From: an uncultured Bacteroidota bacterium
GTDB taxonomy: Bacteria; Bacteroidota; Bacteroidia; Flavobacteriales; Flavobacteriaceae
Direction of reading: 5' to 3'
NCBI GenBank assembly: GCA_902559035.1
Contig: CACEGG010000002.1
Coordinates: forward strand, 51,846 to 115,845
DNA: 64,000 nt
Shown here: piece by piece, positions 7,879-55,534 of the stretch
Layout of the letters: each line of letters begins with the position of its first letter
Numbering within the stretch: position 1 is the stretch's first letter
Notes under the pieces: generated by a model
Told to the model about the DNA's origin: nothing
The model's input: the letters and a program-made list of their open reading frames with translations, nothing else
The model's database searches: none
Translations under genes and position numbers: made by a program

Positions 7879-9783
7879 TTATTTGTTCGAAACAATGTCT
7901 ATATCATTGTTGTTAGCGCTAACATAAATTAACACTGTTTTATTGACCTTATACCCCATTTTCGAAAGAATTTGACGGTATTTTTTAATTTGATTTTCAT
8001 CTTTATTGCTCCTCTCTCCTGTTTTATAGTCGATAATAACAATCTGCTTGTTTTCGTTGAAAACTATTCTGTCAGGCCTAATAGGCTTGCCATTATCAAC
8101 AAAAATTTCTTTTTCACAAACTACAGAATTATTACTGAGAAAGTGTTTTTTTAAATTTGGATGGTTTATTAATTGCTTTGAAACCGAGAGGATCTTTTTC
8201 TTAACTTCTAAGTCAATAAAATTCAATTTCATAAAAATTTCTGCTTCTTTTTTATAATCTGAGACATATAAAATCCGAGACATAAAATCATGAAACGCAT
8301 TGCCAAATTTAATTTTTTGATTAGCAAACTTTATCTCGGGTTTTATGCTTAAAGTCTGTGTATGAAACTTATTAGCTTTTTCAATTATAATCCTTTTAAT
8401 CTTTTTCTTTACAGTCTTTTCTCCCCATATATAATTAAACTTTTTGTCGCTCCACTTTTTATCGCTCTGAAGAAAAAACCTCAACATTTGGCTATGCGAA
8501 TCAATTGCCCCCAGTTTGGGGTAAACGGGTATCATGTGTAATTCTTCAATCGCTCTTGTTAAAGCTACATACAGAAGGTTTGCATTGTCTAACTCCTGGT
8601 TAACTAGGGTAGTTTCATACTCGTTTTTAAAATAGAGGTTATACTCTTTTAAATTCTCATTAAACGGCATGAGTAGCTTTGTTGAGTCTTGATTTTCATC
8701 AATCGGCAGCCATTTTTTAAGTCCGCGTTTCCTATAGGTAACTGAATCTACAAATGGGTATATTACAACAGGGTACTCAAGCCCTTTTGATTTATGTATT
8801 GTCAAAATCTTAACAGAATCGTTTGTGTCTTGACTAGGAACAAATAGTTTGTCTTTATTTTTGTTCCAAAAAAGTAAAAACTCATTTTCATTACAGTTCT
8901 TATTATAAACCTGATCATATAATATCTCTTTAAAAAAAGCTAAAAAGGGATTAGAATTGTCTTCATCCATTTTAAGCTTTTTTATGCAATAGTCTATAGA
9001 ATCTACAAGCTCCATGTTAAAGCTGTTTTCTACCCCTTCTGCCCGAAGTTTTTTGAAAAAGTTTGTGAGCTCTAACTCAATTATATTTTTAAAAAAAAGA
9101 TACTGATCTCCATTGCTCACATTGGAATAATAATAGTTTGCTATTTCAAACTTTGAGATTTTATTAAGCGGATTTTGTCTCAGCTTAATTACATTAATTA
9201 AAATCTTTACTTTTTCTGAATTACCAATTGAAAGAGAGTCAAAACACTCAATTGGAATCCTTTTTTCTATTAATTTAGCTGAAATGAGTGAAGCCTGTTT
9301 ATTGTCTCTTGTTAAAATTGCGATTTCAGAATATTTAAAACCTCTGCCATTACAACATTTAACCCTGTCTATTGTTGTTTTTAACACCTCCTCTAGTTCT
9401 TCACTTTTTTTTAATTTAGGGCTTAAAAACTTAATAGTAACATGCCCTCCTTGTTTCTCGTTTTCAGCTTGATTTGATCCAAGTTTATAAATTCTATTGT
9501 GGTTAGAGTTCATAAACAAGTCTGCTACTGAACTAAAAAGCTTGTTATTGAATTTCACAATCTCTTTTTTGCTTCTATAGTTTTTAGGTAGTCCATTGCT
9601 GCTTTTAGCAACGTTGAATGGGTTGGTTGTGCCCATTAAAGAAATAAAGATGTTTGGGTCGGCTCCCCTCCACCTGTAAACGGATTGTTTGGGGTCACCC
9701 ACTAATAGGAGCGAGCCCGACTCATCGTGGTTATCAGACTCCAAAGCGTGTGAAATAAGCGGAACTATATTGGTCCACTGCAT
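7879..9783 (-). CDS. UvrD-family helicase / AddA-like helicase-nuclease, C-terminal 2/3 fragment
   Basis: Contains LLLVGDPKQSVYRWRGA and helicase C-terminal motifs (VALTRA.EEL). The C-terminal PD-(D/E)XK motif is PDRIVF...VIIDYKTGE. The same frame stays open upstream to 9960 and there encodes the DEFQDTS motif. Confidence 0.8.
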   Translation of the reverse strand: MQWTNIVPLISHALESDNHDESGSLLLVGDPKQSVYRWRGADPNIFISLMGTTNPFNVAKSSNGLPKNYRSKKEIVKFNNKLFSSVADLFMNSNHNRIYKLGSNQAENEKQGGHVTIKFLSPKLKKSEELEEVLKTTIDRVKCCNGRGFKYSEIAILTRDNKQASLISAKLIEKRIPIECFDSLSIGNSEKVKILINVIKLRQNPLNKISKFEIANYYYSNVSNGDQYLFFKNIIELELTNFFKKLRAEGVENSFNMELVDSIDYCIKKLKMDEDNSNPFLAFFKEILYDQVYNKNCNENEFLLFWNKNKDKLFVPSQDTNDSVKILTIHKSKGLEYPVVIYPFVDSVTYRKRGLKKWLPIDENQDSTKLLMPFNENLKEYNLYFKNEYETTLVNQELDNANLLYVALTRAIEELHMIPVYPKLGAIDSHSQMLRFFLQSDKKWSDKKFNYIWGEKTVKKKIKRIIIEKANKFHTQTLSIKPEIKFANQKIKFGNAFHDFMSRILYVSDYKKEAEIFMKLNFIDLEVKKKILSVSKQLINHPNLKKHFLSNNSVVCEKEIFVDNGKPIRPDRIVFNENKQIVIIDYKTGERSNKDENQIKKYRQILSKMGYKVNKTVLIYVSANNNDIDIVSNK

Positions 9784-45396: not shown

Positions 45397-46254
45397 GTGA
45401 AAGAAAATGCAAAAAAACCATTTAAACAAAGGCTTTTAAACAAGTATAGGCTTGTTGTTTTAAATGAAGAGACCTACGAAGAAAGAATATCTTATAAACT
45501 AAACAAGCTTAATATTTTTTTATTAATTGCTTTTGCATCCACCATCTTAATAATGACAACCATAGTTTTAATTGTATATACTCCAATTAAAGAATATATT
45601 CCAGGCTACGACTCTACTGTTTTAAGGCAAACGGCCGTGCGAAACATAGAAACATTAGATTCTTTAGAAAGGGTAATTCAAAAGAACCAAACATTTATAA
45701 ATTCTGTTGGGTCAGTTATTTTAGGAGAAGTGTCTCAAGAGGAGCTTTTAAGAGAAAGTAATATTGCAAGAATAGACATTTCTGAACTTCAATTTAAAAC
45801 AAATATTGAAGACTCTTTACTAAGAAATTTTGTTGAGAAAGAAGACAGGTTTAATACTCTTGAAAGCGCTGCATCCAAAGTAGAATATGTTTTGTTTAGC
45901 CCTATTCAAGGACAAATTTCATCATTGTTTGACCCAGGTCAAAAACATTTTGGAGTAGATGTCCCTGCTAAAACTAATACTCCGGTAAAAGCTATTTCAG
46001 ACGGGAGGGTTCTTTTTTCTGAATGGACAATTGACACGGGATTTGTTTTAATAATTGAGCATTCTTTCAATTTAATCAGTGTTTATAAGCATAATTCTTT
46101 GGGGCTTTCTAGTCAGGGAGATTTTGTTAAAGCAGGCCAAGCAATTGCGCTTTCAGGCAATACAGGGGAATTGAGCACAGGGCCACATTTACATTTTGAG
46201 CTTTGGAACGACGGGAATCCAGTAGACCCTTTAGAATACATAAGTTTTGAGTAG
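45397..46254 (+). CDS. M23 family metallopeptidase (membrane anchored)
   Basis: N-terminal TM, HFGVDV and GPHLHFEL zinc motifs. GTG start. Confidence 0.8.
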   Translation: MKENAKKPFKQRLLNKYRLVVLNEETYEERISYKLNKLNIFLLIAFASTILIMTTIVLIVYTPIKEYIPGYDSTVLRQTAVRNIETLDSLERVIQKNQTFINSVGSVILGEVSQEELLRESNIARIDISELQFKTNIEDSLLRNFVEKEDRFNTLESAASKVEYVLFSPIQGQISSLFDPGQKHFGVDVPAKTNTPVKAISDGRVLFSEWTIDTGFVLIIEHSFNLISVYKHNSLGLSSQGDFVKAGQAIALSGNTGELSTGPHLHFELWNDGNPVDPLEYISFE

Positions 46255-47752
46255 TTTAAAAGAAAAAGTAGCTAAAGTTTATGCAAGATATGTTGTTTGG
46301 AAAACAACAAAATGGGCTGCATATCCACATAAAACTCAAAAGAAAGTTTTCAAAAAACTATTAGCTAAAGGAAAAAAAACACGCTTTGGCAAAGAGCATT
46401 CCTTTGGAAAAATTATAAATTATGAAGACTTTTCTAAACAAGTTCCAGTAAGAGATTATGAAGGGTTAAAAAAATACATCAAATTAATAACAGATGGAGA
46501 AAAAGATGTTTTATGGCCAGGAAGGCCAATTTACTTTGCCAAAACATCAGGGACTACGTCTGGCGAAAAACTCATTCCCATATCCAAAGAATCAATGCCT
46601 TATCATGTGAAAGGGTCTGTTGAGGCAACAATGCACTATATCAACGAAACCTCTAACACGAGTTTTTTAAACAAAAAAATTATTTTTTTACAAGGAAGCC
46701 CAGTCCTTGAAGAAATAAAAAGGATCAGAACAGGGCGCCTTTCGGGAATTGTTGCTCACTATACACCGTCTTTTTTAAAAAAAAACACAATGCCTTCTTG
46801 GGAAACAAACTGTATTGAGGATTGGGAAAAAAAAGTTTTAGAGATTTCTAAAGAGACCCTTAAAGAAGATATGGCTGCAATAGGAGGAATCCCCCCTTGG
46901 GTGATTATGTATTTTGAAAAACTACTTGATATTACTGGAAAAAAAACCATAAAACAGATTTTTCCAAATTTTAGCCTTTTTGTTTACGGAGGCGTTAATT
47001 ATAGCCCATACAAAGAATCTTTTAGACAGTTAATAGGCGAGGAAATTGATAGCATTGAATATTATCCGGCATCCGAGGGTTTTTTTGCATACCAAGATTC
47101 ACAAAAAAATAAAGGGCTTTTGCTACAGCTCAACTCGGGGATATTTTACGAGTTTATTGAAATTGAGGAGATGAAGAAGAATTGTCCCAAACGTTTAACG
47201 ATTAATGAGGTTGAAAAAGAAACAAATTATGTTTTAGTAGTGTCAACAAATGCAGGGTTATGGGGATATAATACGGGAGATACTGTAGAATTCACATCTC
47301 TTGTCCCTGCTCGAGTTAAGGTTACAGGAAGATATAAGCATTTTATTTCAGCATTTGGAGAACACGTAATTGGAAGCGAGGTTGAAAAAGCATTAAAAGA
47401 GACGTTTGTTAATCAAAAAACGTCCTTAAAAGAGTTTACGGTAGCTCCAAAGGTAAATCCAAAAAAAGGCTTGCCTTTTCACCAGTGGTGGATAGAGTTT
47501 GACCAGGAGGTTTCCTCAGAAAAAATTAAAAAAATAGAAAAAGAACTAGATAGCAATTTACAAAGTTTAAATAGCTATTATAAAGACCTAGTACAAGGAA
47601 AAGTATTAAAGCCACTGGAGATAGTTGTTGTAAAAAAAGGAGGGTTTAAAAGTTATATGGAAAGCATTGGGAAATTGGGCGGTCAAAACAAACTTCCTCG
47701 GCTGTCTAATGATAGAAAAATTGTAGATCAATTGATTAATTATACAGCGTAA
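46247..47752 (+). CDS. GH3 (auxin-responsive promoter) family acyl-acid amido synthetase-like protein
   Basis: FAKTSGTTSGEKLIP adenylation P-loop, YPASEGFFAYQD, and a YNTGD motif. About 500 aa. TTG start as tracked. Confidence 0.7.
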   Translation: MSSLKEKVAKVYARYVVWKTTKWAAYPHKTQKKVFKKLLAKGKKTRFGKEHSFGKIINYEDFSKQVPVRDYEGLKKYIKLITDGEKDVLWPGRPIYFAKTSGTTSGEKLIPISKESMPYHVKGSVEATMHYINETSNTSFLNKKIIFLQGSPVLEEIKRIRTGRLSGIVAHYTPSFLKKNTMPSWETNCIEDWEKKVLEISKETLKEDMAAIGGIPPWVIMYFEKLLDITGKKTIKQIFPNFSLFVYGGVNYSPYKESFRQLIGEEIDSIEYYPASEGFFAYQDSQKNKGLLLQLNSGIFYEFIEIEEMKKNCPKRLTINEVEKETNYVLVVSTNAGLWGYNTGDTVEFTSLVPARVKVTGRYKHFISAFGEHVIGSEVEKALKETFVNQKTSLKEFTVAPKVNPKKGLPFHQWWIEFDQEVSSEKIKKIEKELDSNLQSLNSYYKDLVQGKVLKPLEIVVVKKGGFKSYMESIGKLGGQNKLPRLSNDRKIVDQLINYTA

Positions 47753-49099
47753 TTAAAAAATAATTTTAGTATTTAATCTATAAACCACCTGCCTTGAATC
47801 AGACTGTTTCGCAGTTTTCATAATTAATTCAAGTTTAAAGGTTTCTTCAAACTTAACGTTCAGATCGTTTATAGCCTTGTTTTTTCTTTTAATGTTAGCA
47901 TCTTCACTAAGCTCAGGTTTTTTAAAATAGTTTAAGAAAAAAACATTATCAACCTGATTGTTTTTAGAGCTTGATAATAATTCAATAATAAACTTTTCGT
48001 CAGTTGATATATTCATAGACTTGTTTAGTCCAGTTAAAGTACTATTGTTAATTACAAAGTAAAAAGTATCCCGTTTAAATTTAAGAAAAGTAAAAACAAC
48101 CAATATAAAACAGAAAAATAAAACCACTACAAAATAGGACACAAACAAATTATAATCGTTTGTAAGAAAAGCTTCGCTTTCTAAAACTAAACCATCATAA
48201 AAGTCTTTTACAATTAGTGTTTCATAGGCTCTGTCTGCTGTCAAACTAGTATAAATTATTTTATCTCCAACATTTATAGCATTTGTTTTAACCTGAATTA
48301 AATTTTCATTAATATAGTTTTTTACAGAATTCTTTGAAGGCTCAATAACAACTAAGCTTTTGCTAAGAAGGTTTTTTTGTAAAAATCTTGTTGAGCCAAA
48401 CGGAATAGTTAGGTCTATATTCTTTCTGTTTATATCATCATAAAACAAACGGTTTAAGGATCCTTTCTTTTCCCACGTTAAACTACTCAAGTTTAATTCA
48501 TAAGTGTTGTTGTTTTTGACATCTATATCGTCTGCTTTTTGATAAAAATCAAAAACATATAAAATATCGTTTTCAACTACAAACGAGCCTGCATTAATTC
48601 CCAGTTCAGGGACCTGTCCTCTGGTTTCAATATAATCCCACTCTTTAGTTTGGAAGTTAAATTTAGTCAACAAGCTATTACTCCTCCAATATCCATATCC
48701 TCCCATCAAATAGGGAGTGTTTTTATAGGTGAAAAAGTGCCCAGAAAATTGATTTCTGTGGGGAAAACTTTCGTCAATTCTTATAATACTATTATCTCTG
48801 TATTCAAATAACAGCCCTCCACCGGGATATAGAAAATAGACTATCCCATCGCTTGAAACAGTCCATTTAAGATCTCTAAAAGGTATGTTTTTTATTTCTG
48901 ATGGTAAGGGATTAGAGTACTCAAAAAAAACTTTATTAAGCCCATTGTTTTGAATAGTAAATTCATAAACGCCAGTTTTGGTAAAAGAATAAAATGAAAG
49001 GGAGTCTTTTGAAACTAGAGATTGTCCTGATGGAAGATTTTCTTGTGAAAACATAACCCAACAAAACAAACTTGAAAATAAAAACAGTAATTTTTTCAT
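47753..49099 (-). CDS. paralog 1: signal peptide + Kelch-like ectodomain + single TM + C-terminal winged-helix-like domain; function unknown
   Basis: Signal peptide MKKLLFLFSSLFCWVMFSQ, a GGYGYW Kelch-like motif, and a TM at about aa 317-339 followed by KFKR (positive-inside). The C-terminal 110 aa read ..DEKFIIELL...NIKRKNKAINDLNVKF...SDSRQVVYRL. The start overlaps the upstream WecA-like stop by 4 nt. Confidence 0.5.
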   Translation of the reverse strand: MKKLLFLFSSLFCWVMFSQENLPSGQSLVSKDSLSFYSFTKTGVYEFTIQNNGLNKVFFEYSNPLPSEIKNIPFRDLKWTVSSDGIVYFLYPGGGLLFEYRDNSIIRIDESFPHRNQFSGHFFTYKNTPYLMGGYGYWRSNSLLTKFNFQTKEWDYIETRGQVPELGINAGSFVVENDILYVFDFYQKADDIDVKNNNTYELNLSSLTWEKKGSLNRLFYDDINRKNIDLTIPFGSTRFLQKNLLSKSLVVIEPSKNSVKNYINENLIQVKTNAINVGDKIIYTSLTADRAYETLIVKDFYDGLVLESEAFLTNDYNLFVSYFVVVLFFCFILVVFTFLKFKRDTFYFVINNSTLTGLNKSMNISTDEKFIIELLSSSKNNQVDNVFFLNYFKKPELSEDANIKRKNKAINDLNVKFEETFKLELIMKTAKQSDSRQVVYRLNTKIIF

Positions 49100-49761
49100 T
49101 TAAAAAAAATATAATAAATCAAGCCAAGAATCAATAAGGTTAAAGCAACGCTTCCAATTAGCCCAAGGCTTAAAAACAAAAGACAGTTTAATAAGAGAAT
49201 TAAAACCGAAAGAATGAAGATTAACAACGAGGCTTGCCAATGTTCATAGCCTTTATCGGCCAACCTATGGTGTAGGTGTATTCTATCAGCGACAAATGGA
49301 GATTGGTTGCGATATGCTCTAATAGTGAATGCACGTAAAGTATCAACTAATGGATAAATTAACATCAAAACAGTTAAAAATGGCCTAGAAATAAAAGAGT
49401 CCGTTATTATACTGTTTTCTGTATCGAGAATGTAAAAAATCAAAAAACTCATAATAGACCCTAAAAACAAAGACCCTGTATCACCTAAAAACACTTTGTT
49501 TGTTCGGTTAAAATTAAAAGTTAAAAAACCAATTAGAGCTCCAATTATTATAGGGAAAAAAAGAAACAATTTTGAGTCCGCAATTAAAATGATTCCCCCA
49601 GAAACTAAAAAAAACTTAATAGATAAAAACGATGCAAGCCCATCGAGTCCATCAATTAAGTTTAGTGCATTAACCACCACGACAAACACAAAAAGAGAAA
49701 CAAAAGCAGAAAGCCAATAAGGCAGTTCAAAAAACCCCAAAAACCCCATGAAAAGAATCAA
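49096..49761 (-). CDS. WecA/MraY-family (GT4) polyprenyl-phosphate sugar-1-phosphate transferase, C-terminal fragment
   Basis: NALNLIDGLDGLA and FLGDTGSLFLG motifs in a multi-TM protein. The tracked start is TTG, inside the overlap with the upstream fragment. Confidence 0.75.
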   Translation of the reverse strand: MILFMGFLGFFELPYWLSAFVSLFVFVVVVNALNLIDGLDGLASFLSIKFFLVSGGIILIADSKLFLFFPIIIGALIGFLTFNFNRTNKVFLGDTGSLFLGSIMSFLIFYILDTENSIITDSFISRPFLTVLMLIYPLVDTLRAFTIRAYRNQSPFVADRIHLHHRLADKGYEHWQASLLIFILSVLILLLNCLLFLSLGLIGSVALTLLILGLIYYIFFK

Positions 49762-50122
49762 TGTAGTACCCAGATTGAATCATTAAGATACCTGCAAAGA
49801 TTTGTAAAAATAATTTTTCTCTATATCGAACTTCAATTAGATCATCAGCAAAACCGGTCAGCGTCATAAAAAACACGCTTAATAACACATACAAGGGAAA
49901 AGAAAGCTCATTGGTTGCAACCGCAAAAGCAGAGGCAATACAAACTGTAAAAAAAACCGATAGGCCACCTGATCTAGTTGCAGGATAATTATGCGAAGAC
50001 CTTTCATTGATTGGGTCTGTAAGCTTATTTCCAACAAAAAGCCTATTCAAATATCCGTTTAGATACAAAGAGACCATTAAGGTTAACGAAAAAAAAGTCA
50101 CATAATAAATTAAGTCAGTCAT
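49727..50122 (-). CDS. WecA/MraY-family transferase, N-terminal fragment
   Basis: TGFADDLIEVRYREKL (the DDxxD-type Mg site of the family). It ends at a TGA created at the A6 run 49729-49734. Confidence 0.75.
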   Translation of the reverse strand: MTDLIYYVTFFSLTLMVSLYLNGYLNRLFVGNKLTDPINERSSHNYPATRSGGLSVFFTVCIASAFAVATNELSFPLYVLLSVFFMTLTGFADDLIEVRYREKLFLQIFAGILMIQSGYYIDSFHGVFGVF

Positions 50123-50144
50123 AATTATTATTTATTTTTAAAAT

Positions 50145-51563
50145 ATGTTTAAACACGCTGTTGTAGTTTTTCTATTGTTTTTTTTGAATATAATTTCGTC
50201 TCAAGAGTATGCTCTTCCAAACGATATTGGCGAAAACTTTGTTTTTTTCAAAGATAAAGACTCTAAAATTCATCTTTTAAAAAACAACATTGATTATGTT
50301 TTTGAAAATAAAAAGTGGAAGAAAAATGTTTTATCTTACGAAACCTCATTTAGAGACAGCAGTATTGTTTTTTATAAAAAAGGGTTTAACAATGTAAGTT
50401 TTAAATCAATTAATACTGAAACTAAAACTTTTCTAATTTTAAATGGCGGAGGACCTGTATTACAGATTGAAAAAGACAAGATCATTAGAATAGACAATTC
50501 TGTTGAACAAAAAAATCAGTTTGGCGCAGCTATTTTTGAACACAATAATCAGTTACATATGCATGGCGGATATGGGTTTTGGACGTTTAAAGACTATACC
50601 ACTTATTTTGATGCGACAACAAACCAATGGGAGCTTTGCGTATTTGACCCTAAACCAAATTTAAAACCCAGATGGAAATCAATCTTTCATAAAACAGAAA
50701 ACAACTTATATGTATTAGGCGGCAGGGCTTCCCGTATTGAAAATCAGCGCATAGACGCAGCTATAAAAGACGTTTTTAAAATAGATTTTCAAACAAAGAG
50801 CGTTGAGTTGTTTGAGTCGGGCTTCAACCCACAAATTCCAATAACATCAAGTGCTTTTCAAGGGGTTAAGATCAATAATCAAAAAGCCTACCTTAATCAT
50901 TTTGATCTTGTTGTTTTTGATTTTGAAAAAAATTCTGTAACAGAGTATGACACGGCAGAGTTTTTTAAAAACAAATATCCAAATACACCTGTATTAAGCG
51001 CTAAAGACTCAATTGTTTTTATAAATAATAGACAGGACGTCAAAACAATTAAATTTATTCCAGTTCAACAGGCTTTACAAAACCCTTTAAAAACAATTGC
51101 TATTTTTAATCTTGACAACCCTGGATTTCCTTATAAAAAAACACTTGCATTTGTTTCAGCTGTTTTGATAGCTTTCTTTTTATATTTTCTCTTTGGCTAT
51201 AAGGACTATATTAACAAATTGGTTCATCATGACGATCAGTGGTTGTACTATGCAAACAACAAAATGTTAGTTTCAAAAGATCAAAGCATGACTATTGAGC
51301 TTTTAGAGAAAAACGGTCAATTTTCTTCTACAGAACTAAATAAGATAATTTGCAAAAACAAATCATACGCTAAATCTCACTTAACTCACCTAAGGCAAAC
51401 GTTTATTGAAAGTTTAAACTTGGCTTATCATAATCTTACAGGCTTTAGTGAACCGTTAATAAGCTCAACCAAAAACCCAGCAGATAAAAGGCAATTAATT
51501 TATTTTGCAGGGAATAAAATATTAAAGAAGAAGTCCTTTATTGAATTTGTTTTCAACAAATAA
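50145..51563 (+). CDS. paralog 2: signal peptide + Kelch-like ectodomain + single TM + C-terminal winged-helix (OmpR/trans_reg_C-like) domain
   Basis: It shares IIRID.S....NQF and GGYG.W blocks with 47753..49099. The TM is at about aa 333-351, followed by YKDYINK. The C-terminus reads QSMTIELLEKNGQFSSTELNKII....SHLTHLRQTFIESLN...ADKRQLIYF, laid out like a helix-turn-helix plus wing. Confidence 0.5.
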   Translation: MFKHAVVVFLLFFLNIISSQEYALPNDIGENFVFFKDKDSKIHLLKNNIDYVFENKKWKKNVLSYETSFRDSSIVFYKKGFNNVSFKSINTETKTFLILNGGGPVLQIEKDKIIRIDNSVEQKNQFGAAIFEHNNQLHMHGGYGFWTFKDYTTYFDATTNQWELCVFDPKPNLKPRWKSIFHKTENNLYVLGGRASRIENQRIDAAIKDVFKIDFQTKSVELFESGFNPQIPITSSAFQGVKINNQKAYLNHFDLVVFDFEKNSVTEYDTAEFFKNKYPNTPVLSAKDSIVFINNRQDVKTIKFIPVQQALQNPLKTIAIFNLDNPGFPYKKTLAFVSAVLIAFFLYFLFGYKDYINKLVHHDDQWLYYANNKMLVSKDQSMTIELLEKNGQFSSTELNKIICKNKSYAKSHLTHLRQTFIESLNLAYHNLTGFSEPLISSTKNPADKRQLIYFAGNKILKKKSFIEFVFNK

Positions 51564-51615
51564 CTTCACGGCTTCGCCAATGCCCCCCCCAATTAAAAAA
51601 AACAAAACAGCATTT

Positions 51616-52086
51616 TTAAACAACAGCAACAACCCTGGTGGTATCTAAAGAGAGCTTTACTTTTATTGAATTCATCAATAAAATCAGAAAATTACTCTCA
51701 ACACTATCAACAAGACCATTTTTGTTTTTTAAAACACCTGACAAAACTTTAACTGTATCTCCAGCCCCAAAAGTAAAATCTTCATTGTAATGCTTTAAAC
51801 AATCTTTCATTGTTTGAATTTCTGACCCATGAATTTCGACAGCTTGTCCAAAACGCCTTACAACATTTCTAAGAAAAGGGTTTAAGTTTATAAAGGGATA
51901 GTCAACCTTTTCAAGCTTAAAAAAAACATAGCCAGAAATGGCCGGGGTAATAATTTTTTTTGTTCTATCAGACCACTGTCTTTTTTCTTCAAATACAGGC
52001 ACATAAGATTCAACTCCGTTTTTTTTAAAAAAATCGCTAGCTTTCACCTCACAGCGTGACTTAGTATGTGCTACAAACCATTTCAT
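51616..52086 (-). CDS. UpxY-family (NusG paralog) transcription antiterminator
   Basis: NGN-domain start MKWFVAHTKSRCE...YVPV....R.WSDR.K....P...GYVFF and a C-terminal KOW-like GDTVKVLSGVLKNKNG. The start is chosen at 52086 because a -7 box overlaps the longer ORF start. Confidence 0.75.
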   Translation of the reverse strand: MKWFVAHTKSRCEVKASDFFKKNGVESYVPVFEEKRQWSDRTKKIITPAISGYVFFKLEKVDYPFINLNPFLRNVVRRFGQAVEIHGSEIQTMKDCLKHYNEDFTFGAGDTVKVLSGVLKNKNGLVDSVESNFLILLMNSIKVKLSLDTTRVVAVV

Positions 52087-52095
52087 GACCTTCAT

Positions 52096-52103
52096 CAAAG
52101 ATA
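52096..52103 (-). promoter_or_regulatory. -7 box (TATCTTTG) for the UpxY-like gene
   Basis: The minus strand reads TATCTTTG-ATGAAGGTC-ATG, with the box 9 nt from the MKWF start. Confidence 0.45.
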
Positions 52104-52277
52104 ATAAATTAAAAATAAAAGAGACGTAAAAGGTTCGTTTTGTACTATTGTATTTGTAATCTGCTGATTGTAAGCAAATTAATGGTTCACTTTTTGCAAT
52201 TATAATAAAATTCGTTAGCGAATGTTTTGAAAACTTGATATAGGTAAAAATAAATCGAGATATACCATTTTCTTCAT

Positions 52278-52285
52278 TAAATTTG
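52278..52285 (+). promoter_or_regulatory. -7 box (TAAATTTG) 4 nt from the purD ATG
   Basis: TAAATTTG-TAAA-ATG. Confidence 0.5.
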
Positions 52286-52289
52286 TAAA

Positions 52290-53564
52290 ATGAATATACT
52301 TATTATTGGTTCAGGAGCGCGTGAGCACGCTTTTTGTTGGAAACTTGCTCAATCAAAAAAAACTGAAAAAGTTTATGTTGTTCCTGGAAATGCTGGGACC
52401 TCAGAACTAGCCACAAATCTAGACTTTGAAGTTTCTAAATTCAAAGATTTAAAACAGAATATTTTAAAACATAACATACAACTAGTTTTAGTTGGCCCTG
52501 AGATTCCTTTAATTAACGGAGTGGTTGACCAAATTAACAACGATAAAGAATTAAAGGATATTTTGGTCGTTGGACCTTCAAAAAAAGGAGCCCTATTAGA
52601 GGGCAGTAAGGATTTTTCTAAAGAATTCATGGAAAGACACAAAATTCCAACCGCTGGATATAAAACATTCAATACTGACACATTACATCTTGGCCTTAGT
52701 TATTTAGAGTCCGTTTCACCACCCTTCGTATTGAAAGCAGATGGACCTGCTGCAGGTAAAGGAGTTTTGATTTTAGACAACCTAGAGGATGCAAAAAAAG
52801 AACTAATTAGTATGCTCAAAAACAATAAGTTTGGATCATCCGGCCACAGAGTTGTAGTGGAAGAGTTTTTGGACGGAATAGAATTGTCGTGTTTTGTTTT
52901 GACAGATGGCAAATCGTATAAAATACTACCTAATGCCAAAGATTACAAAAGAATTGGAGAGGGAGACACGGGCCTAAATACTGGAGGAATGGGCTCTATT
53001 TCTCCTGTAAGTTTTGCCTCAAAGGAATTTTTAAAAAAAGTAGAAGATAGAATTATTATTCCAACAGTTAAGGGACTTCAAAAAGAAAATCTTCCCTACA
53101 AAGGATTCATTTTCATTGGTCTAATCATGGTTGATAATGATCCGTATGTCATAGAGTATAACGTAAGGATGGGCGACCCTGAGACGCAAGTTGTTTTGCC
53201 AAGAATTAAATCTGATTTTTTAGAACTGATGGTAAGAACAGCAAACCAAACCCTAAATAATTTTGACTTGCAAGTACACGAGGAGACGTATGCCAACATA
53301 GTAATGGTTGCTGGAGGATATCCAGAATCATATGAAAAAGGAAATCCAATAACAGGAATTCCCAAGGACAATGAAATTTCAAAAATATTTCATGCAGGGA
53401 CAAAAGAAATCGATAATAAGCTTTTTACAAATGGAGGAAGAGTTTTGTCTGTGGTCTCGAAAGGCTCTAACTTTAAACAAGCGTTATCAAAGTCATATGA
53501 AATAGCTGGAAAAATTGACTTTAAAGACAAAAATTACAGAAAAGATATAGGGTTTGATCTATAA
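52290..53564 (+). CDS. purD: phosphoribosylamine--glycine ligase
   Basis: MNILIIGSGAREHA, ATP-grasp motifs, and GDPETQ. Confidence 0.95.
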   Translation: MNILIIGSGAREHAFCWKLAQSKKTEKVYVVPGNAGTSELATNLDFEVSKFKDLKQNILKHNIQLVLVGPEIPLINGVVDQINNDKELKDILVVGPSKKGALLEGSKDFSKEFMERHKIPTAGYKTFNTDTLHLGLSYLESVSPPFVLKADGPAAGKGVLILDNLEDAKKELISMLKNNKFGSSGHRVVVEEFLDGIELSCFVLTDGKSYKILPNAKDYKRIGEGDTGLNTGGMGSISPVSFASKEFLKKVEDRIIIPTVKGLQKENLPYKGFIFIGLIMVDNDPYVIEYNVRMGDPETQVVLPRIKSDFLELMVRTANQTLNNFDLQVHEETYANIVMVAGGYPESYEKGNPITGIPKDNEISKIFHAGTKEIDNKLFTNGGRVLSVVSKGSNFKQALSKSYEIAGKIDFKDKNYRKDIGFDL

Positions 53565-53893: not shown

Positions 53894-54496
53894 ATGACCA
53901 GTAATCAGTTTTTTGAAGTTTTCGAGAAAAGCATTTTGGATTATCATATTTACGACTCTATAGAACAGGAAGCAAAAAACCCATACAACAAAGAGGATTT
54001 TAAATTTCTCCTTTACCAAAAAAATTGGATAGACACGGTTCAATGGCACTTAGAAGACATAATAAGAGATCCAAAAATTGATCCAAAGGAAGCTCTGAAA
54101 ATAAAGAGAATTATTGACGCTTCTAATCAGAAACGAACTGATTTAGTTGAATTCATCGATGGATACTTTTTACAAAAATATAAGAACGTTAAGGTTCTTG
54201 ATACAGCTACTATAAACACAGAAACAATTGCTTGGGCAATAGATAGGCTATCAATTTTGGCATTAAAAATCTTTCATATGAAGGAAGAGGCAAATAGAGA
54301 AAGTGCAGAAGAGAAACACAAGTTTAATTGCCAGAATAAGTTAGGTGTTTTAAAAGATCAGAAAAAAGATTTATGTGGAGCTATTGACCAACTGATTCAA
54401 GATATTGAAGAGGGGAAAAAATACATTAAGGTTTATAAACAGATGAAAATGTATAATGATGAAGATCTGAACCCTGTGCTTTATAAGACCAAGTAA
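53894..54496 (+). CDS. DUF4254-like protein
   Basis: About 200 aa with the WIDTVQWHLEDIIRDP motif. It lies immediately upstream of a GT9 gene, an arrangement I recall as typical of Bacteroidota. Confidence 0.5.
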   Translation: MTSNQFFEVFEKSILDYHIYDSIEQEAKNPYNKEDFKFLLYQKNWIDTVQWHLEDIIRDPKIDPKEALKIKRIIDASNQKRTDLVEFIDGYFLQKYKNVKVLDTATINTETIAWAIDRLSILALKIFHMKEEANRESAEEKHKFNCQNKLGVLKDQKKDLCGAIDQLIQDIEEGKKYIKVYKQMKMYNDEDLNPVLYKTK

Positions 54497-54502
54497 AAAC
54501 AA

Positions 54503-55534
54503 ATGAAACACCTGTTAGTTTTAAGATTTTCTTCGATGGGTGATGTTGCAATGATGATACCTGCACTAAGGTGTTTGAATAAATCTTATCCAGATCTTAA
54601 GATAACAATTGTTTCAAATAAATTATTCAAGCCCTTTTTTAATGAATTTGAAAATATTACTTTTTTTCAAGTAAATTTTAAATCTCAGTTCAAAGGAATT
54701 AAAGGATTGCTAAACCTTTTTAAAGAACTTGCTAATTTAAAGCCAACACACGTTGCTGATTTGCATTCCGTGATTAGAACACATGTTTTAACCTTTTTGT
54801 TCAGATCTAGATTTTATAAGGTTAAAAGAATAAATAAGCTGAGGTCTGATAAAAAAAAACTATTTAGAAAGAACAACAAGGTTTTGAAGCCCCTAGTTCC
54901 AACACAATACAGATATGCTGAGGTATTTTGTAAGTTGGGCTTTAATATTGATTTAACTAACCATAAGTTTCCTTTGCCAAAACCCCTTAGTATAGGTTCA
55001 AGGAATTTTATTTCAGACATAGATTCTAGTAAAAAACATATTGGAATTGCACCTTTTGCTTCATTTGTTGGAAAAATATACCCATTAGACTTAATGCAAA
55101 AAGTGGTTGCTTTTTTACAGCAAGATCACAATGTATTTTTATTTGGGAACGGGAAATATGAAACGGATATTTTAAAGGTTTGGGAAAATGCTTATCCAAA
55201 TGTTTTGGGATGTTATAACCTTGGTTCTTTAGAAATGGAATTAGAGATAATTTCAAATCTTAATGCAATGGTCTCGATGGATTCTGCTAATGGACATATT
55301 GCAGCAAACTACAATGTGCCGGTTATCTCTCTATGGGGCCTTACCCATCCTTTTGGTGGATATGCACCTTTATTGTCTATTCCGGAAAACATGTTAATGT
55401 CATCAAGAGAAAAATACCCACTTATCCCAACATCGGCCTATGGAAATAAAATGCCTAAAGGATATGAGGGTGTTATGAGAACAATTGATTATGGGGATGT
55501 AATTTTAGCAGTCAATAAAGCAATTAAGAACTAA
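54503..55534 (+). CDS. glycosyltransferase family 9 (heptosyltransferase-like)
   Basis: MKHLLVLRFSSMGDV start, and a C-terminal DSANGHIAA....P.ISLWG motif typical of GT9. Confidence 0.75.
   Translation: MKHLLVLRFSSMGDVAMMIPALRCLNKSYPDLKITIVSNKLFKPFFNEFENITFFQVNFKSQFKGIKGLLNLFKELANLKPTHVADLHSVIRTHVLTFLFRSRFYKVKRINKLRSDKKKLFRKNNKVLKPLVPTQYRYAEVFCKLGFNIDLTNHKFPLPKPLSIGSRNFISDIDSSKKHIGIAPFASFVGKIYPLDLMQKVVAFLQQDHNVFLFGNGKYETDILKVWENAYPNVLGCYNLGSLEMELEIISNLNAMVSMDSANGHIAANYNVPVISLWGLTHPFGGYAPLLSIPENMLMSSREKYPLIPTSAYGNKMPKGYEGVMRTIDYGDVILAVNKAIKN

Follow-up and report, generated by a model that had tools for sequence, protein, structure and literature searches.

What do two related membrane proteins do on either side of a gene for an initiating glycan transferase? 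The question is raised by a 64,000-nucleotide stretch of contig CACEGG010000002.1 (positions 51,846 to 115,845; hereafter the window) from an uncultured Flavobacteriaceae bacterium. The two proteins, Par1 and Par2, are encoded by par1 (47753–49099, minus strand, 448 aa) and par2 (50145–51563, plus strand, 472 aa). Between them lies wecA (49096–50122, minus strand), a predicted polyprenyl-phosphate N-acetylhexosamine-1-phosphate (HexNAc-1-P) transferase gene of the WecA/MraY family (PF00953), and beyond par2 lies upxY, a gene for a UpxY-like NusG paralog. An earlier note on this DNA, made from the letters alone, had read the pair as membrane-tethered regulators of surface-glycan initiation. Here we describe a protein family that joins a Kelch-type ectodomain through a single membrane span to a modelled winged helix. 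The odds seem to us about even that the members of this new family are one-component regulators spanning the membrane and that, in this lineage, they act locally on polysaccharide genes.

Both open reading frames were confirmed as called, and their products share 23% identity over ~400 aa (BLASTP, E = 5e-14), a similarity that marks Par1 and Par2 as true paralogs and is too strong to have arisen by chance. All the motifs quoted in the earlier note were found, namely GGG(L/P)...IIRID.S....NQF, (M/H)GGYG(Y/F)W, W(D/E) and the C-terminal strings, with W(D/E) placed ~17 aa downstream of (M/H)GGYG(Y/F)W. Each protein begins with a signal-like segment (aa 1–19 in Par1; 50145–50201 in par2), and Gln20, directly behind the predicted cleavage site, is invariant in a 17-sequence alignment. 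A Kelch-like ectodomain follows (50202–51140 in par2), and then the single internal hydrophobic 19-mer of each protein (aa 318–336 in Par1, Kyte–Doolittle score 3.07; aa 333–351 in Par2, 2.33), which belongs to the transmembrane helix (aa ~318–340 of Par1, 48080–48148; 51141–51203 in par2). The remainder is a basic C-terminal domain of ~110–120 aa (aa 341–448 of Par1, 47756–48079; aa 354–472 of Par2, 51204–51560), with a net charge of +1 to +12 in 26/26 aligned family members; the Par1 domain aligns with that of Par2, and the two have an invariant D-x-R in common. Because a cleaved signal peptide leaves one transmembrane helix, the N-terminal ~300 aa should be periplasmic and the C-terminus cytoplasmic. 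The Lys and Arg residues flanking the helix in Par1 (none before, three after) fit the positive-inside rule, while those in Par2 (two before, two after) are uninformative. Together with the models described below, these features support the proposed architecture of signal peptide, Kelch-like propeller, single transmembrane helix and cytoplasmic winged helix.

The regulatory reading depends on the C-terminal domain. In the full-length AlphaFold2 model of Par2, residues 360–472 have predicted local distance difference test (pLDDT) values of 84–92, and a model of the isolated domain (aa 355–472, with 26 diverse family sequences) shows the same elements at a pLDDT of 85.6 and a predicted template modelling score (pTM) of 0.78; the domain is modelled with higher confidence than the propeller. 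It comprises three strands (360–362, 366–369 and 372–375), a helix (378–390), a fourth strand (392–394), two further helices (395–402 and 410–432) and a pair of wing strands (439–443 and 451–455). The modelled order, β-β-β-α1-β-α2-α3-β-hairpin, is the strand and helix order of OmpR/PhoB. When the isolated domain was compared with the PDB using Foldseek, nearly all of the top 50 matches were DNA-binding winged-helix proteins. These were led by the MarR family (HpaR, YusO, MgrA, MexR, OhrR, AbfR and AdcR; E ~0.02–0.1, probability up to 1.0, ~82 residues aligned, TM-score ~0.4), with NsrR and BlaI also among the top matches. The best global structural fits were to the DNA-binding domain of CadC (5ju7; query and target TM-scores of 0.53 and 0.57) and to CovR (3rjp; 0.51 and 0.60). 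A profile search of PDB sequences returned weak matches, nearly all of them winged-helix regulators (AdcR, E = 0.0012; DrrD, 0.017; also HpaR, CovR, ArlR, AdeR, ToxR and PhoB-family proteins), and PF01047 (MarR) was touched by one of 16 members examined (E = 0.044).

Conservation within the domain is concentrated in the predicted wing. Across 26 diverse C-terminal domains the sole invariant columns are Asp447 and Arg449 (Par2 numbering), which are the fourth and sixth of the seven loop residues (aa 444–450) between wing strands 439–443 and 451–455. The wing of the MarR-family protein MepR is built in the same manner, with strands 77–81 and 89–93 on either side of loop 82–88, where Arg87 enters the minor groove and is buttressed by Asp85; both residues are kept throughout the MarR family (PMC3936728). 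The register of Asp447 and Arg449 in their loop is that of MepR Asp85 and Arg87, and the AdcR wing was also aligned by the hidden Markov model (HMM). The predicted recognition helix (aa 410–432) contains a column that is Lys or Arg in 100% of the 26 members (Arg417), and a β-sheet takes the place of the MarR N-terminal dimerisation helix in this ~110-aa domain. As modelled, the domain is a winged helix with an OmpR-like strand order and a MarR-like wing that belongs to neither curated family. Its local core and wing look more MarR-like than OmpR/PhoB-like, and we infer from the predicted fold that it probably binds DNA. One homolog, P0314, has a normal propeller and transmembrane helix followed by a tail of DUF6712 and a bona fide Trans_reg_C domain. 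It comes from a single 1.9-kb ENA metagenome contig and was set aside as evidence of functional equivalence, since either misassembly or a natural exchange of winged helices may have produced it.

The ectodomain is supported by its model as a Kelch-type propeller. Foldseek matched it to Kelch propellers in the PDB at E values of 1e-6 to 1e-4 and a probability of 1.0, the sialic-acid mutarotase YjhT (2uvk) being among the matches; also matched were periplasmic propellers from BT4663, a hybrid two-component sensor of Bacteroides, and from the 'one component system' BT4673 (PDB ID: 3ott). In Pfam the Kelch scores of Par1 and Par2 are sub-threshold (PF24681, 34.9 and 27.1 bits, against a gathering threshold of 50), whereas more distant homologs clear the Kelch cut-offs (P0314, Kelch_6, 50.7 against 25.3). 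The Pfam scan of the full-length proteins returned Kelch-type repeats only, with no Y_Y_Y, GerE or phosphorelay domains (HisKA, HATPase and REC). The full-length Par2 model has a mean pLDDT of 73.9.

Searching 1.84 billion representative proteins, clustered at 50% identity, with a profile of the C-terminal domain gave 628 clusters at E ≤ 1e-3 and 173 at E ≤ 1e-10. Full-length members are nearly all ~445–490 aa long, with the domain at the extreme C-terminus. Ten shorter matches were read individually as possible minimal, propeller-less versions; for six of them (253–354 aa, with two of 175–219 aa) this idea was rejected, as they plainly start within the ectodomain. The other four (184–192 aa), which have a Met start and only a brief stretch ahead of the transmembrane helix, are less clear cases, although probably truncated gene calls too. 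Judged by these sequences, the domain is effectively confined to the Kelch–transmembrane architecture. A scan of one genome per species yielded 27 loci, all in Flavobacteriia, carried by marine uncultured Flavobacteriaceae, 'Cryomorphaceae' metagenome-assembled genomes, Flavobacterium, Aequorivita and Crocinitomicaceae. Culturable carriers of the family include Flavobacterium solisilvae, F. tibetense, F. lutivivi and Aequorivita todarodis. Source annotations name the members 'hypothetical' or 'kelch repeat-containing protein' throughout, and one homolog is labelled N-acetylneuraminic acid mutarotase by JGI. Literature searches found no paper describing a membrane protein that combines Kelch repeats with a winged helix. 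A Flavobacterium-like contig (L038, 3547–6444) encodes an independent tandem pair of 467 and 468 aa, both on one strand and behind a deoxynucleoside kinase gene, so that paralog pairs recur beyond the marine clade to which the window belongs.

Linkage to glycan genes, which the earlier note had proposed for the family, holds in some clades and fails in others. Within the marine clade the gene order pgk, DUF4837, tatA, M23, GH3, par1, wecA, par2, upxY, purD is kept as far as the contigs reach (L027 holds only wecA-par1-GH3), and wecA and par1 are adjacent throughout the species recovered. This linkage could come from shared ancestry alone. More informative, and independent of the marine clade, are six Crocinitomicaceae-type loci (L022–L026 and L029), each with one family gene immediately ahead of wecA in the same orientation. 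One of these (L029) is a polysaccharide cluster in which glycosyltransferase, carbamoyltransferase and PGI genes are followed by par, wecA, wza and a gene for a Wzc-like protein, and at a related locus (L030) par is preceded by sugar-nucleotide genes and PGI. The Flavobacterium and Aequorivita members examined have varied contexts, which include purL with a type IX secretion system cargo gene, a deoxynucleoside kinase gene, genes for Fib_succ_major lipoproteins, a divergent family-2 glycosyltransferase gene and CTP synthase. A genuine association with wecA and export genes thus exists, but only within two distant clades.

The junctions around wecA were as the earlier note had described them. 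The stop codon of wecA and the start codon of par1 share the ATGA at 49096–49099, read directly in the sequence, which gives the reported 4-nt overlap. The start codons of wecA and par2 diverge across an AT-rich spacer of 22 bp (50123–50144), and the same spacing is kept in close relatives. The gene itself had been taken as single and intact, but in the window it is split between two frames (49727–50122 and 49096–49761). The split results from an additional T that lengthens a T5 run, which appears as A6 at 49729–49734 on the plus strand. Intact copies, encoding 341 aa, are present in near-identical contigs (L032, 98.8% identical, and L033, 99.65%), where the Par2 protein is identical to that of the window. 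Compared with the 99.65%-identical contig there are only two internal indels, A6 for A5 in wecA and C8 for C7 at ~51583–51590 in the par2/upxY spacer. As both are +1 changes in homopolymers, the likeliest cause is an error of sequencing or assembly, or else a lesion particular to the strain, and phase variation or a pseudogene is less likely. The pattern points to homopolymers of wrong length in the source assembly or to tracts that are hypervariable. PF00953 recognises both fragments (72.4 and 29.5 bits, against a cut-off of 27), and the score against the WecA equivalog TIGR02380 is far under its cut-off.

Beyond a convergent spacer of 52 bp, par2 faces upxY (51616–52098, minus strand), the product of which has an NGN domain (PF02357, 46.5 against 22.2) and a weak KOW domain. 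The NCBI UpxY model NF033644 is its top NusG-type match, at 76.8 and below the cut-off of 100. The listed start is TTG at 52098; relatives start at the equivalent of ATG 52086 (MKWFVAHTK), which from this comparison is likely to be the true start. UpxY had been described as an orphan, and no operon follows it in the window. The orphan state is, however, lineage-specific: in seven relatives (L005, L007 and L009–L013) ~3.6 kb separates upxY from par2, and where this stretch was read, in L009, it encodes wza (Poly_export and SLBB) and wzz (Wzz and GNVR) on the upxY strand, so that upxY heads upxY-wza-wzz. Neither wza nor wzz occurs anywhere in the 64-kb window, and both are missing from its closest relatives too. 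From these gene orders, the 'orphan UpxY' is the product of a lineage-specific wza-wzz deletion. In L009 the 3' ends of wzz (minus strand) and par2 (plus strand) overlap by 11 nt (9382–9392), leaving no space for a terminator between them, and a scan of the window for intrinsic terminators found no terminator-like site in the par2/upxY spacer. Read-through is conceivable, since upxY(-wza-wzz) and wecA-par1 share a strand and are separated only by par2, which is antisense to both.

The DNA around these genes was searched for elements on which a regulator might act. Scans for sigma-70 promoters and intrinsic terminators gave counts at the level of shuffled sequence, the Bacteroidetes -7 motif TAnnTTTG occurs 10 times in 47000–53000 against 9.2 expected, and an Rfam scan of the same interval gave no match. 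In the 191-bp upxY-purD spacer, conserved -7 boxes are present for both upxY and purD. The upxY box, TATCTTTG (52103–52096), is conserved in 11/11 aligned spacers and lies ~10–25 nt upstream of the upxY start, which points to a very short leader, unlike that of Bacteroides upxY operons. The same spacer contains two direct copies of a 28-bp motif, AAAaGTTCgTTTTttGCTATtATAAt (consensus AAAAGTTCGTTTTTTGCTATTATAATTT), 52 bp apart on the plus strand (52129–52156 and 52181–52208). With a cut-off of 16 bits, the pair was found in 14/14 orthologous spacers scanned at 21–32 bits, apart from one copy in L008 at 15.8; three contigs (L004, L006 and L013) end before the spacer. Nowhere else in the window does the motif recur; the next best site there scores 12.9 bits, which is at shuffle level. 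It is likewise absent from ~0.49 Mb of other loci, and a position weight matrix scan near family genes elsewhere matched it in upxY-purD spacers only. On sequence grounds this tandem motif is a candidate operator or leader element. In the Crocinitomicaceae-type loci, 6/6 spacers between par and wecA have a conserved -7 box, GCTAC(T/C)TTTGCA, that precedes the wecA start codon by ~35 nt, and in some of these spacers the box is itself preceded by a near-palindrome (GTTCATGAAC or GTTCACGAAC).

We compared the family with known membrane regulators and with the soluble proteins that it resembles. ToxR, CadC, TcpP and VtrA likewise combine a periplasmic sensor and a cytoplasmic winged helix in one polypeptide by means of one transmembrane helix. 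ToxR and CadC carry the DNA-binding domain at the N-terminus and the sensor at the C-terminus, the opposite of Par1 and Par2; the reversed domain order noted earlier is borne out, and in functional terms the 'inverted ToxR' comparison is apt. ToxR and CadC are also bona fide Trans_reg_C members with long cytoplasmic linkers, whereas the Par domain is not recognised by the Trans_reg_C HMM and sits on a very short tether. Among Bacteroidota, however, the topology is not unusual, as SusR, BguR and BT4673 (3ott) have it. SusR and BguR, the latter from marine Bacteroidota, place the sensor outside and the DNA-binding domain inside at the C-terminus. BguR, genetically shown to be an activator, controls glycan catabolism (polysaccharide utilisation loci); its 940 aa comprise a signal peptide, tandem Reg_prop propellers, Y_Y_Y, a transmembrane helix, an α-helical linker and a GerE/LuxR-type helix-turn-helix (bioRxiv 10.64898/2026.01.10.698779). 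In their predicted architecture the Par proteins share with BguR, SusR and BT4673 a signal peptide, a periplasmic β-propeller, one transmembrane helix, a C-terminal cytoplasmic DNA-binding fold of helix-turn-helix type and the lack of phosphorelay domains, and with BguR and SusR their occurrence in Bacteroidota beside carbohydrate-related genes. They differ from BguR in their length (~450–470 aa), single Kelch-type propeller, lack of Y_Y_Y, near absence of a linker and use of a winged helix that has no relation to GerE. They also adjoin glycan biosynthesis and export genes in the two informative clades, in contrast to the catabolic loci of BguR. The outward-sensor topology is thus already known in Bacteroidota, and the combination of Kelch and winged-helix domains differs in every domain from BguR.

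The MarR proteins MepR, AdcR and HpaR resemble the Par domain in their helix-turn-helix core, β-hairpin wing and D-x-R at the same loop positions. They are soluble homodimers that pair through their N- and C-terminal helices, whereas the Par domains lack those helices and carry an N-terminal three-stranded sheet, as in OmpR/PhoB, as well as a membrane anchor. In the Bacteroides UpxY/UpxZ system of capsule operon control, the NusG paralog is encoded at the head of a polysaccharide operon (PMC11685472), and the upxY-wza-wzz order in relatives of the present genome is similar. The window differs from that system in that no UpxZ was identified, no ops-like GCGnAGC element was seen and the operon behind upxY is gone.

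If the proteins are regulators, the following sequence of events would account for the architecture. The signal peptide would be cleaved before the invariant Gln, placing a predicted ~300-aa Kelch-type propeller in the periplasm, and one transmembrane helix with a tether of ~6–10 residues would lead to a basic cytoplasmic winged helix, which is predicted with high confidence. Ligand binding by the propeller, most plausibly of a sugar or glycan, would alter oligomerisation, possibly through Par1–Par2 hetero-oligomers. The winged helices would then bind DNA through the conserved Lys/Arg of the recognition helix, and the invariant Arg of the wing, with support from the invariant Asp, would enter an AT-rich minor groove in the manner of MarR. 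Likely targets in this lineage would be wecA-par1 and, ancestrally, upxY-wza-wzz. Such a role is plausible because BguR and SusR show that the same topology works in Bacteroidota. On the models and conservation set out above, the family probably switches genes directly from the membrane, and we infer that the local circuit would control surface-glycan initiation.

Several observations weigh against this reading. No Pfam or NCBIfam model covers the C-terminal domain, either in the two full-length proteins or in 16 isolated C-terminal domains; PF00486 (Trans_reg_C) gave nothing at E ≤ 10 for the isolated domains and nothing at E ≤ 1 for the full-length proteins, and hhalign of the C-terminal profile against one genuine Trans_reg_C domain gave a probability of 0.1. 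The OmpR/PhoB-type assignment of the earlier note accordingly stands for strand and helix order and for the fits to CadC and CovR (TM-scores of 0.51–0.60), but not for Trans_reg_C membership. No Foldseek match of the isolated domain had an E value below 1e-3, and TM-scores were 0.4–0.6. Several propeller blades of Par2 are poorly modelled, and RIDxSxxxxNQ, the most conserved ectodomain motif, sits in a low-confidence loop (pLDDT < 50). The modelled tether from the transmembrane helix to the first β-strand is only ~6–10 residues long, so that DNA would need to approach the membrane closely; the tethers of ToxR and CadC are far longer. Around the 22-bp wecA/par2 junction, for which the earlier note had proposed promoters inside coding DNA, comparison of relatives revealed no conserved promoter motif or operator, and no conserved TAnnTTTG nearby. 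The 28-bp motif, which occurs in upxY-purD spacers only, is not attributable to par1 and par2 over purD or UpxY control. Finally, no glycan genes adjoin the Flavobacterium and Aequorivita members examined, save for the divergent family-2 glycosyltransferase gene in L014.

The main rival to direct regulation is a non-DNA-binding role in glycan assembly, in which the winged helix is a membrane-proximal protein-interaction module and the glycan-binding propeller modulates WecA or Wza/Wzz post-translationally, as an assembly or feedback accessory. The overlap of the wecA stop and par1 start, which suggests co-expression, would suit such a partner, as would the very short tether, the lack of an operator near wecA and the sub-threshold structural and sequence similarity to DNA-binding families. 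Yet invariance within the domain is limited to the D-x-R pair of the wing, placed in the minor-groove register of MarR, the recognition helix has a conserved basic column and the domain is uniformly basic; moreover, many members lie away from wecA and export genes, so that a WecA-specific partnership would not be general. We regard the accessory role as rather unlikely. Another possibility is that the proteins are latent, membrane-sequestered transcription factors from which regulated intramembrane proteolysis (site-1/site-2 cleavage) frees the winged helix. The short tether, which makes DNA binding at the membrane sterically awkward, is more easily reconciled with release, as is a domain that is compact, basic and confidently folded alone. 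The neighbourhoods examined show no consistent linkage to a protease gene, however, the sequence has no specific cleavage-site signature, and ToxR, CadC, BguR and SusR are described as active while membrane-bound; we consider release by proteolysis improbable.

A further explanation departs from regulation altogether and takes the proteins as membrane-anchored periplasmic Kelch enzymes or lectins, mutarotase-like or glycan-binding, with a non-regulatory tail whose winged-helix call is over-interpreted. The Foldseek match to YjhT (2uvk) and the JGI mutarotase annotation of one homolog agree with this, and the strongest conservation in the whole protein, RIDxSxxxxNQ and GGYG, lies in the ectodomain. 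But the C-terminal domain is kept in 628 clusters, always joined to this ectodomain, is better predicted than the propeller and matches almost only DNA-binding winged helices; we hold a purely periplasmic function to be very improbable. Returning to direct regulation from the membrane, a more elaborate form can be envisaged, although we think it a long shot. The family would represent a third, hitherto unrecognised membrane-spanning one-component architecture in Bacteroidota, pairing Kelch repeats with a MarR/OmpR-hybrid winged helix on an ultra-short tether, that senses a periplasmic glycan or lipid-linked intermediate and sets the transcription of the initiating transferase and export genes. 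UpxY-dependent read-through against antisense par2 would add a convergent-transcription switch for the surface glycan. In the marine clade, par2 runs antisense to its neighbours on both sides, upxY(-wza-wzz) and wecA-par1, and is flanked by no terminator, so that read-through and par2 expression would work against each other.

The genes that border the locus were also examined. On the far side of par1, a GH3-family gene (46247–47752, plus strand) has the lyso-ornithine lipid synthetase OlsH as its top NCBIfam match (382 bits, cut-off 620), and its end abuts the par1 stop codon, with zero intergenic bases between these convergent genes. At the other end, purD (52290–53564, plus strand) is followed by a DUF4254 gene and a family-9, heptosyltransferase-like glycosyltransferase gene (together 53894–55534, plus strand). 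This DUF4254–glycosyltransferase pair adjoins purD throughout the marine clade, which places more envelope-glycan genes nearby.

To our knowledge, the regulation of surface polysaccharides and exopolysaccharides in marine Flavobacteriia is largely uncharted, and we know of membrane-spanning one-component regulators of Bacteroidota only from glycan catabolism (SusR and BguR). The invariant Asp447 and Arg449 and the tandem 28-bp motif (52129–52208), as a candidate DNA element, make the prediction easily testable. If it is correct, Par1 and Par2 would represent a widespread class of regulators with no need for ATP, present also in culturable Flavobacterium and Aequorivita species, and tied in two clades to the first committed step of glycan assembly.

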